Source of the DNA: Fistulifera solaris
Taxonomy: Eukaryota
Direction: 5' to 3'
NCBI GenBank assembly: GCA_030295235.1
Contig: AP026125.1
Location: forward strand, 248,001-312,000
DNA length: 64,000 nucleotides
The translations under genes were made by a program, and so were the position numbers. The notes beneath the pieces are model-generated. The model was given only the letters and a program-made list of their open reading frames with translations, did not search any database and was not told the DNA's origin. Each line of letters opens with the position of its first letter. The stretch's first letter is position 1. This document shows positions 55,810 through 61,689 of this stretch, piece after piece.

Positions 55810-56900
55810 TTAAGAAAACAAACGACAATACTCTGCCATGGCCGTCATGGCTTGCACATGTCGATTGCCCGGCGGAGCCGTTGGCACATACGGTCGTTCC
55901 CGCAACCACAATTGCGCAATCCATTTATCCCCGGAGACCACTTGCTGTCCACAATGCAACGTCCGGATATCGTAGGGCGTCTCGGGGAGACCACCGGCGG
56001 CCGGAAAAAGAGCAACGCCGTTCCTTGCGTAGGTCGGACCGCCAGTCGTTGGCCGTGCTCGTCTTGTAAATCGCGAAAGAGGGTGGCACCGCCGTCTTCT
56101 ACCGACATATCGGTCAAATACACCAGCAACGTTGCAATGCGTTGACTGTCTTGTTTTTCGGTAGGCCCTAGAGCATCCAAATGCCACGTAAATTTTTCCT
56201 TGCGACGGTATCGTACCGTTTGTGGTTCTTCCCAACAATCAATGGAATCGAGTCCCAACAAACGCGATGCTTTGACCATGAGTTCCGGGACACTGGCGAA
56301 TGGGTGATACCATGTTGTACTGGTCCGTTGCGCTTTCGCAGCAGCATCTTTACCGACTGTAGGAGAGCGGCTTTCGAGAGAATTCGTATGGGTGGAAAGA
56401 GCCAGGTAACGTTGGCATTCGTCGGCGGTAAAAAAGTTGGGAACGGAGATGACGAGAGGATCCACGTGCAAGACTTGCAAATTGCTAAAAGGGGGTAGAC
56501 TATCAAACATGGTGGAAGATGAATCCAAAGTTGGACTCTCCGACAATGTTAAGAGATTTTGCAATAGTGAAGTAGTACTCGATGCTGGCGTATCGTAATT
56601 GAAGTCCGGAAAACCATAAATTTGATCCAATCGTTGATAAATTTCGCTCGAAAATGTAGTTCTATCGGATGGAATCAATGTCGACAGAATATTCGGATCC
56701 AAGCTCGGAAATATAGCATAATCATCTTCGATTTTGGGTGCTTTCTTGGGCATGCCGAATCCGCCACCACCCTGTCGTCCTTTGGCGTGCAAAGCGGACG
56801 TCGGTTTCGGATCTCTGCACAGAAAGCCGTCTGCAATTTCTGACACGAATGCCAGCAGTAGGAGAAGGCATTTGTTGTTCGTTAGTATCATCATCGTCAT
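55810..56900 (-). CDS. Prolyl 4-hydroxylase-like 2OG-Fe(II) oxygenase, probably plastid-targeted; frameshift near 56005
   Basis: Signal peptide ending ADG|F; DPLVISVPNFFTADEC, RTSTT, EEPQTVRY, HLD, RIATLLVYL, GGATLF; second frame RTLHCGQQVVSGDKWIAQLW. Confidence 0.88.
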
Positions 56901-57712: not shown

Positions 57713-58450
57713 TCAACCATTCACTTCTTCCAGCGTCAGCTCGTCACCAAAACTCGCCATTTCAATCGTACGTTTCCCGGTCCAATCATCTTCATCCAAA
57801 AATTCGTGTGAAATGTCATCCAAAGAATCATCAAAATCGGTATCAATGTAATGCGCGGCCACGGCACGATATTCCCCCCGTGACATTGATCTTCGTCGGT
57901 TCCGTACGAATCGCAGGGTTACGAACAAAGCCGCCCCCACGCTCAAAACAGCGAAGAAGGGATGATTCTGTGAAAACGTGGTCGTTTGACACATCATTCG
58001 ACGCATCCAACTGGCATTCGTAGAACACGATTTGTGCTGAGTTGTTTTTGGTGGTGGCGATGGATCCGATATGGTTATCGAGGGATGATGATTGAGCGTT
58101 TTGTTTTTCGCGGGAGAAATGTGTGGTTCCATAGTTGCGTGATCTGAATGTTGATACGTGTAGTTGAATTCTGGATCCGACAGTGGATTGGTCATGTTCA
58201 TTATAACGTCGTGTGAATTTTGTTCCGCTTTCACATCATCGTCGTCGACATGAATCACATCATCATCTTGCTGCGGGTTCGCCTCGGAAGGACTGTCCGT
58301 CGGTATATAATGTTGATACGTTTCATTGAACGCCGGATCGGAGAGAGGATTCGTCATGTTCATGACCGGCGGAGGACCGAGTAACAGCGATGTGACGTCT
58401 GGCTCTTCCAGGCGTCGATGCGACGCGATTCGCGATTTCGTTCGCGTCAT
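57713..58450 (-). CDS. Single-TM protein with RRL motif, an internal 19-aa duplication and a YxxPhi/acidic cytosolic tail
   Basis: HRRLEE; VMNMTNPLSDPAFNETYQH and IMNMTNPLSDPEFNYTYQH; TM FFAVLSVGAALFVTL; YRAV. Confidence 0.65.
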   Translation of the reverse strand: MTRTKSRIASHRRLEEPDVTSLLLGPPPVMNMTNPLSDPAFNETYQHYIPTDSPSEANPQQDDDVIHVDDDDVKAEQNSHDVIMNMTNPLSDPEFNYTYQHSDHATMEPHISPAKNKTLNHHPSITISDPSPPPKTTQHKSCSTNASWMRRMMCQTTTFSQNHPFFAVLSVGAALFVTLRFVRNRRRSMSRGEYRAVAAHYIDTDFDDSLDDISHEFLDEDDWTGKRTIEMASFGDELTLEEVNG

Positions 58451-59059
58451 TCTAAATCTTCTTATGGATTGCTACTGATTAAAGGGAATACTTGCAGTAG
58501 ATCACTACGTCTTGGCGTTGCTTGTGTTTGTTTAGTTTTTCCATCATCGTCGCCTTCTATCGTATCGTTGTCGATCGTGCCCGTCGTGCGCGTTGTTCCC
58601 GAACGCAACGAACGACGGCCAAAAACCGTCTGCTCGTCGGCGGCAGGTGGAAGATCAATAACCGATGCGACGCTTTGGCACTGGAATGCTGCGAATACAC
58701 AGTGCTGCGCTTCGAGCTGATGTCAACAGGATACACAAACGACAAAAAAGGATCTACGAATCGAAGATGATTGATTGCTATAGAGATGATCGCTAACAAT
58801 CGTGAAGGAGCGGCAAAGACGGTAACAGTACGATGGCAGCGTTCGGTTGACCAGGTTTTTTCGATGTGCGAGCGAGTAGATCAGTTCATGAAGAGGGGTG
58901 ACCCGTCACAATCAGCCAAGTTGACGAGGAAGTAATAAGGAGGAGAAAAGATATTTCTGATGACGAAATGAGGCTTTACACTATTGGTGGATGGATCGAA
59001 AAGAAAAAGTCCAGAGACCGCCTGTTATGTTCTTCATTATCGCAGTACTTTTGTCTAAA

Positions 59060-59659
59060 TCAAAAGTAAAGCACCGAAGCTACGGCCGCCATACCCTGAA
59101 GACGGGACGATGAACTGACTTGCTGCATTTGAAGGACGTTCGTACCAGAATCGGTCGTACCGGGATCGGTGGAGGGCGCATCCGAGGCGTCGGGGTCTTC
59201 GTCGTCAAAAGAATCCATGGAAGGACCATCGCGATCATCGTCGCAGGAATGATTCGAGTCCATGGAGAAGTTGTGGTGATGAAAGAAGTGGTCACCATCG
59301 AAGGAATGATTGCCGTGGAAGGAATGATTGCCAAAGGTAACGTTTCCGTACATGGTGTGATTGCCACCGTGATGCGGCCTACCACCCATCTGGAGCTTTC
59401 TCCCGTCCGGTGCGTCGGAAGAGCGATCATGGTCACAGGGACGGTCCATGGGGTCGCCATGATGAAAGTCGTGATCAAAGGAAGGATCGCGCGAGTTTCC
59501 ATTCATGGAATGACGACCACCGTGATGCGGCCTGCCACACTGCTGAAGGTCACGCTTTCTCAAAAGATCACTGGTCATTGGAGGCGGATGGACCATCATG
59601 GGGTGACCCGTGCCCGAAGCAATACAAGAGGCAATGAGGAAGACGGTAGAGAATTTCAT
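59060..59659 (-). CDS. Secreted His/Asp-rich protein, probable GPI anchor
   Basis: Signal peptide; LRKRDLQ; GRPHHGG twice; GNHSF repeats; C-terminal [15 protein letters not shown] followed by a hydrophobic tail. Confidence 0.75.
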   Translation of the reverse strand: MKFSTVFLIASCIASGTGHPMMVHPPPMTSDLLRKRDLQQCGRPHHGGRHSMNGNSRDPSFDHDFHHGDPMDRPCDHDRSSDAPDGRKLQMGGRPHHGGNHTMYGNVTFGNHSFHGNHSFDGDHFFHHHNFSMDSNHSCDDDRDGPSMDSFDDEDPDASDAPSTDPGTTDSGTNVLQMQQVSSSSRLQGMAAVASVLYF

Positions 59660-60125
59660 GTTCTTTGTCGAAATTGCGATTGTCTTGCTTTACAAGATCA
59701 ATGATCCGATATTTTGTGAGGATAGAAATCTCGGCATGGGTATTCAAAAGTGGTGTTTGGTACGATTCCTAGAGATGATCTCTCGGATCCACGAGTTGAA
59801 CCGTCTCCGACAAATCAGAAGATGGATCAGCCGATGCGACAGGCATGTTGTGTCGCTCCTTTCCCAACAGAAAGTCGTGTGTACGAATTGAAACACAAAC
59901 AACAAATATTCGCCATGGTCTAGTATTTGTCCTGTCGTGCGTAATTATCCATTTGTGAACATTGTCAACAATGACAGGGCGACTCTTCGGTGCAGATCGG
60001 TGACTTTTGAAGTTACTGTCGAGTCGGGCTACGAGCTTTCAGCTGACAGACGTGAAGAAGTCACAATCTACGAAAGAAGGTCACTAGCGATGGCAATCTA
60101 CTCTAAAGTTAATCTTTTCTCTAAA

Positions 60126-60729
60126 TCAAAAGTAAATGGAAGCAGCAGCGAATGCTGTTGCTTCGACGAAAAAAAGGGCGGAACGATGAGCTGACTTGCT
60201 GCATCTGGAGCACGCTAGTACCCTCTTGTGCATCCGTGGTGGATTCCGAATCCGACGATGTGCTATCCACGGAATCATTGTCCGACGAGGAGTTGTCGGA
60301 ACTAGTGTCGATGGATGGGTTAGTGTCCATCGATGCAGTATCGGAGGTGTCATCCGCGGAAATAGTGTCCGAAGTATCATCTGCCGACGGGGTCCCCGTG
60401 GTATCGTCGGCCGACGGATTATCGGAGGTGTCATCGGCCGACGGGTTGTCGGGGGTTTCGTCGGCCGATGGGTTGTCGGGGGTTTCATCGACCGACGGAT
60501 TATCGGAAATATCGTCTACCGACGGATCATCTGTGGTATCGTCGGCTGACGGATCATCGAAGGTGTCATTCATCTTGGGATCTTGGAGCTGACGCTTTCT
60601 CAATTGGATACTTTCGCTATTCATAGCGGGGGCCCTTGCTTTGACCAGTATGCGTTGGTTCTCTCCCATGGCGGTGCTCATGCTGGAAAAACAAGCAAGT
60701 AGTAAAACAGAGGCGACGGGAAACTTCAT
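60126..60729 (-). CDS. Secreted Asp/Ser/Thr-rich repeat protein, paralog of 59060-59659; frameshift near 60170-60185
   Basis: Signal peptide; LRKRQLQ; about 8 PSADDTxDN-type repeats; [13 protein letters not shown]; hydrophobic tail [16 protein letters not shown] in the adjacent frame. Confidence 0.75.
60330..60560 (-). repeat. Degenerate 27-bp coding tandem repeat (PSADDTxDN)
   Basis: Recurrent tcatcggccgacgggttgtcgggggtt-like units on the + strand. Confidence 0.85.
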
Positions 60730-61689
60730 ATTGGATACTTTTTATGCAAGTGATGGGTGAGTAAACTTTGGATCTGTGAATTTGTGAGGACGCTGTCAAA
60801 AGTTGTGGCGGTTTTGGTACGATTCAAATCACAATCGGCTTGGACTTAGTCGTGACTTGCAGTCCGTCGTCCGTCACTTGGTTCTAGACGGCCAATGTCC
60901 CTGCTGCCTTTCAGTATTTTTGCAGTGTAGATCTAACCTTGTCGCCCATGCGTGCCCGCTCTTCGCCCTGCTCTCTGCTCTCTCCTCATTATTTAGTCTA
61001 AAGTGACTCCACAGAAATAATTTGACTAGACCTAAACCAAGCCTAAACTATGATGAGATTTTTTTAGTCAAATTCTAGATCTCCTCTAGAGTTAACGTTA
61101 AACCAGGAGAAAGCGGAGAAAAATGCAAAACGCGTATTACCACGTACTTTAGACTTTACTATGTACTACGAAAGGTATACTACAGCGTACGGAATACGGA
61201 ATACTTTAAAACTGATACAACTCATTACAACGAACAACGAACATCGAACATGGAGCATTATTACTTGTACTTGAACATCTTTCCGCTTTCCGCTTCTTCA
61301 CTATTCATTCACTTTTCACTTTCACTATTCTCTATTTTCACAAGTTCAAGTTTCCTACCTGTACTACGTACTACCTACCGCGCTTACGTAATAAAGCAGA
61401 AATAATGAACAAGTACACATGCGCATACAGTAAATGACCTGGTTAAGAGAAGCAGATGTTCTTTTCACGGTTTACTCATTTGGCCTATACTTACGTCGCC
61501 TTTTTAGATTCGCCGCTGACACGAACCATCTTGCCGATTTTGGTTCGGTTTTGGACCGAGAAAAGATCGGCCTTTTCGTCCTGTTGGTCTCATCCGTCGT
61601 CAACAACTTGTCCTCACTTTCGACAAACCAATAGATTGTTCTCCTCTCGTATCTTTGAGAAGGAGATAATAATAGCAGAACTTTTAGTA

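Follow-up and report, generated by a model that had tools for sequence, protein, structure and literature searches.

Tandem genes of Fistulifera solaris for two putatively RXL-processed, low-complexity secreted proteins with a common chassis and a candidate lipid-anchor tail

The gene pair at the locus

We analysed a stretch of 64,000 nucleotides (nt) from the diatom Fistulifera solaris (GenBank assembly GCA_030295235.1, contig AP026125.1, positions 248,001 to 312,000 of the forward strand), hereafter called the window. Two neighbouring minus-strand genes of this window, genes A and B, encode proteins that share their ends and differ in their middles. The base composition of the window (47% G+C) and its dense long open reading frames (ORFs) read as diatom nuclear DNA. 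An earlier reading of the letters, the original prediction, had pointed out that the two genes form a tandem pair, and our analysis confirmed this observation. As it stands in the window, gene A is an ORF of 199 amino acids (aa) at 59060..59659 (minus strand), and its product matches the 201-aa hypothetical protein FisN_11Hh226 of F. solaris at NCBI (P0001 in the following) with 100% identity along its whole length. The locus tag FisN_11Hh226 was not found in a literature search, nor in the supplementary files of PMC5935921. Gene B is an ORF of 202 aa in the window, and its query against the protein database gave 0 matches at E <= 0.01 among 4464 word-sharing candidates. It may be absent from the public annotation in its frame. 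All coordinates are collected in Table 1.

On the plus strand, two antisense ORFs are open across the repeats of the two genes, one of 151 aa (59249-59704) and one of 146 aa (60152-60592). These ORFs may mislead gene callers and may explain the missing database match of gene B. We also considered whether they are themselves the genes of the locus and rejected this, since a poly(A) tail and the homologs both favour the minus strand. A third copy within the 64-kb window was rejected as well: the tail and LRKR patterns, the promoter box and the stop box described below all give two copies only.

Correction of the reading frames

Contigs from four public sequencing runs (X1-X4) were compared with the window over positions 58600-61200. 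Run X2 is a metagenome and X1 is DNA-like, and the contigs of these two runs span the whole compared stretch. Runs X3 and X4 are listed as "RNA?"; we treated them as cDNA-like because of the placement of their contigs and of one poly(A) tail. In gene B, all four runs showed the A7 run at 60163-60169 to be one base shorter than in the window and had an extra A behind 60127. With both changes made, gene B shifts after ..SSSFRPFF into the frame of a 120-aa ORF and shifts back for its last two codons (L and I, then the stop). About 13 codons of gene B, those between the two indel sites, are therefore in the wrong frame in the window. Gene A is short of one base in the window, which run X1 supplies as an A behind 59061 and run X2 as a T behind 59063. 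Both corrected proteins end two residues later than before, in LI, gene A with ..VLYFLI exactly as in P0001. The gene A variant of the type found in run X2 ends in ..LYLLI, like a protein fragment from the database searches (P0003). The original prediction had given both proteins a hydrophobic end (..AVASVLYF and ..AAASIYF), and this was borne out, with the end of gene B restored by the contigs of 4/4 runs.

The single-base differences between window and reads fall in three homopolymer runs (59061-59065, 60127-60131 and 60163-60169) within 1.1 kb, and all three change the C-termini of gene A or gene B. Nanopore-only assemblies carry homopolymer errors. We attribute the three differences to homopolymer errors in the assembly, and reading frames elsewhere in it may be affected too. 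A nanopore-only assembly of F. solaris (Canu plus nanopolish) is described in the accessible part of a preprint (bioRxiv 10.1101/2021.11.10.468027).

A chassis common to both genes

Overall, genes A and B have five collinear DNA blocks in common, which are spaced by 1040-1076 nt (families D6, D7, D10 and D11 and the promoter box). The five blocks are a promoter box, a block in the 5' leader, a block coding for LRKRxLQ, a 44-nt tail block and a stop box. The promoter box, GAATCGTACCAAA, lies approximately 70-110 nt upstream of each ATG; the window contains 2 matches where 0.09 would be expected. The stop box is a block of 17-23 nt across the stop codon, also with 2 matches in the window (0.02 expected). 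Both copies of the promoter box contain a CGTAC/GTAC core. In green algae and plants, SBP-domain factors bind copper-response elements with GTAC at their core; we take this as a lead only.

At the protein level, the similarity is concentrated at the two ends. Both proteins begin with M-K-F and have Lys as their second residue; a hydrophobic core comes next, with small residues at -3/-1. The maximum 9-residue hydropathy of the signal-peptide-like start is 2.8. Next comes a putative propeptide ending in L-R-K-R-x-L-Q, of 22 residues in gene A and 28 residues in gene B, in which LRKR is encoded by identical codons in the two genes. The similarity score of this pro-region was matched by 0 of 2000 shuffles, and that of the whole N-terminus by 2 of 2000. 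The tail motif, which consists of GT(N/S) and 12 further residues, is identical between A and B at 13 of 15 positions (E = 5e-5 in a single comparison). The shared LRKRxLQ and the near-identical C-terminal tail of the original prediction thus both held up. When the patterns LQMQQ and L[RK][RK]R.LQ were searched in six frames of the 64 kb, none was found beyond genes A and B. The two genes use the same codon at 7 of the 15 tail positions; the remaining differences are synonymous at 6 positions and non-synonymous at 2. It follows that the duplication is not recent and that the chassis is under purifying selection, which acts to preserve the peptide.

The middles of the two proteins

The middle of gene A is built from two His-containing units followed by an acidic segment. 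Residues 39-131 contain 18% His, and the two His units represent an internal duplication (54 nt at 78% identity, D4). The gene has two RXL motifs (Arg-x-Leu), RDL at residue 36 and RKL at residue 87. Unit 2 starts with its own R-K-L-Q, so that the junction was duplicated along with the His unit, as expected if the junction is functional. All four RXL junctions observed, of which gene A has two and gene B and the relative P0002 have one each, continue with a Gln. Unit 1 is missing from P0002 and from a shorter, homeolog-like copy of gene A in runs X1 and X3 (joint 59397->59553). The GNHSF-type repeats form six N-x-S/T sequons in residues 100-138; P0002 also has 6 sequons, several of which are kept despite residue changes. 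The Atlas model of P0001 has a predicted local distance difference test (pLDDT) value of 0.37 and a predicted template modelling (pTM) value of 0.10. The proteins are approximately 200 residues long and largely disordered, with a pre-pro layout.

The middle of gene B is an array of acidic units. Its period is 27 nt, with 6.1 copies and 78% matches, which corresponds to about 6-8 copies of a 9-residue unit. Mature gene B consists of 28% Asp+Glu, 36% Ser+Thr and 1% Lys+Arg. We compared the middles directly and found that the cargo parts of A and B were not significantly alike (score reached by 210 of 2000 shuffles), while the 45 residues before the tail were weakly alike (39 of 2000). Of the 11 six-frame matches to the unit D-x-P-S-x-D in the whole window, 6 belong to gene B, 2 to gene A and 3 lie elsewhere. 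The original prediction had stated that the middles differ completely. This is right for the cargo parts, whose resemblance is no better than chance, but it goes too far for the 45 residues before the tail and for the D-x-P-S-x-D unit that the two genes have in common. Judged from these similarities, gene B looks like an expansion of an acidic unit that is also present in gene A, and gene A looks like a version in which a His module was added and then duplicated.

Transcription of the genes

The RNA-like contigs (X3 and X4) are restricted to 59368-59713 and 60085-60750. One X4 contig has 25 T before 60085 on the plus strand, which is the poly(A) tail of a minus-strand gene B mRNA. The gene B contigs 60113-60750 and 60085-60740 are continuous, and therefore gene B has no intron. 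For gene A, the 5' half is covered by RNA-like contigs (59368-59713). None of them reaches the 3' half (59060-59367), which says nothing for or against its transcription. Gene B and the 5' half of gene A are transcribed. Expression, on which the original prediction had made its case depend, is thus documented by a gene B transcript with a poly(A) tail in run X4.

Relatives, variants and haplotypes

Two further proteins of the gene A type were found in databases. P0002 has 190 aa and is 83% identical to gene A where aligned, and P0003 is a 69-aa fragment. The contig of runs X1 and X3 that joins 59397 to 59553 (59368-59397 plus 59553-59613) carries 6 mismatches and has flanks that differ from those of gene A. 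It represents a shorter gene A copy without the first His unit and with a different signal-peptide sequence, and it occurs both in the DNA-like X1 and in the cDNA-like X3. According to the accessible part of its description, F. solaris is an allopolyploid with two subgenomes, and most simply the shorter copy is probably the homeolog from the other subgenome. The gene A variant of run X2 carries in-frame insertions of 18 nt (one more hexapeptide in unit 2) and of 6 nt (two His). Relative to the window, its codon changes are 19 non-synonymous vs 6 synonymous.

Over the compared stretch, the X2 contigs showed 40 substitutions and several indels, all within 58600-59684, which takes in gene A and the flank downstream of it. 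Between 59685 and 61200 they match the window everywhere except at the two homopolymer sites. This pattern means either that haplotypes change abruptly immediately upstream of gene A or that the contig is chimeric.

Searches on a larger scale added little to these relatives. A word search for the tail in 5.8 billion clusters (lengths 109-349 aa) gave 5 candidates and 2 matches, both of gene A type. A profile of gene A and P0002, run against 1.84 billion representatives, found P0002 and P0003 only. A protein-alignment scan of metagenomes gave 434 pattern matches, none of which was confirmed, and metagenomic DNA had 0 matches to a degenerate version of the tail. Pfam returned 0 families for the gene A or gene B protein. 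In the Protein Atlas, the best feature score for P0001 was 0.79 (below the lead level) with structure matches at a template modelling score (TM) <= 0.27, and gene B had no usable match. In the searches made, the gene pair and its variants are restricted to this diatom lineage. The original prediction had spoken of a modular family. A common chassis with a variable middle is indeed what we found, but "family" overstates the case, since the searches found two paralogs plus close gene A variants.

Table 1. Coordinates of the two genes and of their features in the window
Feature	Position	Strand	Remark
Gene A coding sequence	59055..59659	-	FisN_11Hh226; stop at 59055-59057 once the missing base is restored
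Promoter box GAATCGTACCAAA, 13 nt, gene A	59756..59768	-	about 45 nt past 59713, the outermost end of an RNA-like contig; CGTAC/GTAC core
Signal-peptide-like start, gene A, residues 1-16	59612..59659	-	small residues at -3/-1; rule-based
LRKRDLQ (RXL, then Gln), gene A	59543..59563	-	DNA block D10
His/Asp-rich unit 1, gene A, residues 39-88	59396..59545	-	ends in the second RXL (GRKL, 59390-59401)
His-rich unit 2, gene A, residues 89-131	59267..59395	-	F-x-G-N-H-S hexapeptide repeats; 5/6 sequons
Acidic Ser/Asp segment, gene A, residues 132-171	59147..59266	-	two D-x-P-S-x-D units (59230, 59182); weakly gene B-like
Tail motif, GT(N/S) plus 12 residues, gene A	59102..59146	-	DNA block D6
C-terminal spacer and uncharged end, gene A	59058..59101	-	candidate attachment signal for glycosylphosphatidylinositol (GPI); 13 residues in P0001
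Stop box, gene A	59054..59070	-	holds a T4 run that reads show as five bases
Gene B coding sequence	60121..60729	-	window ORF 202 aa; no intron; no database match
Promoter box GAATCGTACCAAA, 13 nt, gene B	60813..60825	-	upstream of gene B; CGTAC/GTAC core
Signal-peptide-like start, gene B, residues 1-20	60670..60729	-	rule-based
LRKRQLQ, gene B	60583..60603	-	DNA block D10; RQL at residue 46
Acidic 9-residue repeat array, gene B, D-N-P-S-A-D-D-T-S type	60331..60569	-	D1; 27-nt period
Tail motif, GT(N/S) plus 12 residues, gene B	60178..60222	-	DNA block D6
A7 run	60163..60169	.	one base fewer in X1, X2, X3 and X4; moves gene B into the frame of the hydrophobic end
Stop box, gene B	60120..60136	-	one more A behind 60127 in all four runs
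3' untranslated region, gene B, 36 nt	60085..60120	-	poly(A) addition site at 60085

Neighbouring reading frames

Two minus-strand ORFs lie close to the pair. The one at 55845-56900 encodes 351 aa with a signal-anchor-like start and matches 2OG-FeII_Oxy_3 (PF13640, E = 8.8e-9), which is of the prolyl-4-hydroxylase type. It sits 2 kb downstream of the two Pro-containing secreted proteins, and this may be a coincidence. The other, at 57713-58450, encodes 245 aa with one hydrophobic segment and an acidic C-terminus, and contains an internal 55-nt duplication at 82% identity. It has no Pfam family above threshold and is unrelated to the gene A/B pair.

Tethered surface proteins as the preferred interpretation

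The layout of the two genes led us to an interpretation that we consider just as probably right as wrong: they would encode RXL-processed, disordered proteins that a GPI-type tail tethers to the cell surface or wall, and these proteins would form a glycosylated or phosphorylated, cation-binding coat. Signal peptide, cleavage, glycosylation, GPI anchoring, localisation and ion binding are all properties that we infer from the sequences. According to this interpretation, the N-terminal signal peptide would bring each protein into the endoplasmic reticulum, and the propeptide of 22-28 residues would then be cut off between L and Q of L-R-K-R-x-L-Q, leaving an N-terminal glutamine. The low-complexity ectodomain of gene A would receive N-glycans on its G-N-H-S-F-type sequons, and the Ser/Thr/Asp 9-mers of gene B would probably receive O-glycans and/or phosphate. 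Finally, the tail motif and the short uncharged end would together direct GPI-type attachment at a site in SSS. The proteins would thereby be tethered on the plasma-membrane or wall side, where they could form a charged cation-binding coat, imidazole-rich for gene A and polyanionic for gene B. The second RKLQ junction of gene A would in addition free the first His/Asp unit as a peptide of approximately 50 residues. Silica formation and trace-metal capture, both taken up below, would be narrower versions of this interpretation, and each of them is rather unlikely.

The C-terminal part of this proposal can be set beside what GPI signals look like in general. The residues at the attachment site and at +1/+2 are small, and a short spacer separates them from an uncharged hydrophobic end that no cytosolic tail follows. 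Here, an invariant SSS stands 20-22 residues from the C-terminus and is followed by a spacer of 4-5 residues. The uncharged C-terminal runs reach the last residue, with 13 residues in P0001, 15 in P0002 and 13 in P0003. The small residues plus spacer and the uncharged end up to the last residue both agree with the rules. The hydrophobic end of gene B after frame correction has the same layout but contains one Glu. These features are compatible with GPI anchoring. As for the processing step, RXL probably serves the wall and silica precursors of diatoms in general as their endopeptidase site, as stated in the accessible parts of a review (PMC4557024) and of PMC9650480. The claim of the original prediction that RxL is a processing motif of diatom silica and wall proteins is in line with that part of the review. 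Taken together, the interpretation offered in the original prediction is supported in part.

Several points weigh against tethered surface proteins. The uncharged end is short (13 residues), and in gene B it includes the Glu. The conservation of VLQMQQV exceeds what a GPI signal is known to need, and the tail may do something else. The change of the gene A cargo is near neutral (19 vs 6), so the cargo may be little constrained. In the literature searches, we obtained no localisation, proteomic or condition-specific expression data for these genes and, among the papers listed, no experimental work on GPI anchoring in diatoms; a search for diatom GPI-anchored histidine-rich proteins found nothing.

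A more far-reaching idea, which we hold to be decidedly unlikely, is that the pair represents a natural cassette for surface display, in which the promoter box, the signal peptide with its RXL leader and the GPI-type tail stay fixed while the low-complexity cargo can be swapped, lengthened and varied. In such a cassette, the conserved ten-residue stretch of the tail would be a diatom-specific sorting or attachment determinant. The freedom of the cargo that this idea assumes is suggested by the His module in one gene vs the acidic 9-mers in the other, by the loss of a unit in the homeolog-like copy, by the differences in repeat number between strains and by the 19 vs 6 changes.

Alternative explanations

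The same layout would also suit precursors of the biosilica matrix, and we regard this alternative as unlikely. The proteins would enter the silica deposition vesicle, be cleaved at RXL and take part in silica formation, with the tail fixing them to the vesicle membrane. Once phosphorylated, gene B would be a polyanion of the silacidin type, and gene A would be a His/Asp-rich peptide comparable to the sponge protein glassin. The accessible part of PMC4557024 names an RXL that follows the signal peptide and closes repeats as a typical feature of silaffins, silacidins, cingulins and frustulins. It also describes silacidin precursors as repetitive and as releasing peptides rich in Asp/Glu and Ser, with which the composition of mature gene B can be compared. 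Glassin, in the accessible part of its description, is a His-rich silica protein with HX/HHX repeats, and the His content of gene A residues 39-131 is of interest in this respect. Gene B is repetitive and acidic like the silacidins, with one RXL before the repeats and none between them, and no homology to silacidins was detected. Neither protein has sequence similarity to any known silica protein in the Pfam, protein database and profile searches, which argues against the biosilica alternative. The pair also has no lysine clusters, with 3 Lys in gene A and 4 Lys in gene B in total; this counts against the same alternative, and we rejected an assignment as silaffins for this reason. We know of no membrane-lipid tail on a biosilica protein, which speaks against it as well. 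A capture of trace metals at the surface is another doubtful alternative. In this case, the P-H-H-G-G and G-N-H-S-F sequences of gene A would bind Zn, Cu, Ni or Co near transporters in a role like that of ZCRP-B, and gene B would buffer cations. The density of His and the His-Gly-Gly cores in gene A fit such a role, the GTAC core of the promoter box is a lead towards it, and the concept of a surface-tethered zinc ligand exists for diatoms in the form of ZCRP-B, according to the accessible part of its description. The same source, however, presents ZCRP-B as a folded, NikA/CntA-like protein, not a disordered repeat. Moreover, the His in the middle of the sequons is perhaps merely tolerated, glycans at these sites could hinder metal binding, and the nearly neutral evolution of the cargo speaks against metal capture.

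We consider it very unlikely that the genes encode precursors of released peptides, either signals or antimicrobial peptides of a histatin-like kind, with a C-terminal part that only serves for sorting and is then discarded. Cleavage at the RXL/Q junctions would give peptides that begin with Gln, and it would leave unit 1 of gene A free of the tether. On the other hand, the tail, not the putative peptides, is the best conserved part, unit 1 is lacking in the homeolog-like copy and in P0002, and the single RXL junction of gene B means that no small peptide would be excised from it. Most improbable in our view is that the two are quickly evolving orphan genes that serve no specific function, or that repeat-rich DNA has produced a pair of ORFs by chance. 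The restriction to one lineage, the near-neutral pattern of change in gene A and the repeats, which keep several frames open on both strands, would all be expected from such genes. Nevertheless, the minus-strand transcript is polyadenylated, the promoter and stop boxes are conserved, and the orthologous variants stay in frame even with insertions of 18 and 6 nt. The chassis codons diverge mainly by synonymous changes, which points to selection on the protein.

Significance

Diatom wall and surface proteins are species-specific and few of them are known, and for that reason the F. solaris group sought anchors for cell-surface display, as reported in the accessible part of PMC4712521. The pair provides a small, intronless and expressed chassis of leader and tail with a naturally variable middle, which could possibly serve as a display anchor in F. 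solaris. The duplication of an RxL/Q junction within one protein makes it a clean substrate for the cleavage site of the diatom RXL protease, and through this pair GPI-type anchoring in diatoms could become open to experiment for the first time. Should the display-cassette idea be true, the tail would be the first lipid-anchor signal characterised in diatoms, and the chassis would be a compact surface-engineering anchor for the oil-producing F. solaris. The locus also shows that the assembly contains homopolymer errors which alter reading frames.

Comparison with known systems

Outside the diatom wall precursors, three systems resemble gene A or its proposed role, and we treat all of them as functional analogies only. 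The prion protein is GPI-anchored and N-glycosylated, and its disordered octarepeats of the Pro-His-Gly-Gly type bind Cu(II). Gene A has only two P-H-H-G-G cores and no homology to it, so this is a resemblance only. Glassin of hexactinellid sponges is, in the accessible part of its description, His-rich, disordered, secreted and linked to silica, with HX/HHX repeats, and gene A likewise has a His/Asp-rich and a His-rich unit. It comes from an unrelated organism and was compared by description; moreover, the repeats of gene A are N-glycosylation sequons and gene A carries a membrane-type tail. ZCRP-B of Phaeodactylum tricornutum is similar in the idea of a surface protein that concentrates a scarce metal near transporters. 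As far as it is described in the accessible source, ZCRP-B is a folded relative of NikA/CntA that responds to Zn and Co, whereas gene A is a disordered repeat protein.

The GPI-anchored Ser/Thr-rich glycoproteins, such as the yeast wall mannoproteins and the classical arabinogalactan proteins, are alike in their signal peptide, which is putative in genes A and B, in their disordered and modifiable middle, and in the small residues and uncharged end at the C-terminus. Genes A and B differ from them in having an RXL pro-region, and gene B is without arabinogalactan glycomodules. Classical arabinogalactan proteins consist of more than half Pro/Ala/Ser/Thr (PAST) and have many AP/SP/TP dipeptides. 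Mature gene B, at 0.50 PAST with 3 AP/SP/TP dipeptides, and mature gene A, at 0.25 PAST, were rejected as members of this class.

Beside these, genes A and B can be compared with the diatom RXL precursors, namely the Sil1p silaffins, silacidins, cingulins and frustulins. They have in common a short pro-region ending in RXL, low complexity and species specificity, and more particularly the repetition of RXL at the end of a duplicated unit in gene A and the Ser/Asp-rich composition of gene B. Genes A and B differ from these precursors in that they show no sequence similarity to them, have no lysine clusters and carry a hydrophobic C-terminal end behind a conserved motif. Judging from these likenesses and differences, the pair is a small, lineage-restricted representative of a known general kind, the RXL-type secreted low-complexity proteins of diatoms, and carries a tail that is probably a lipid anchor.

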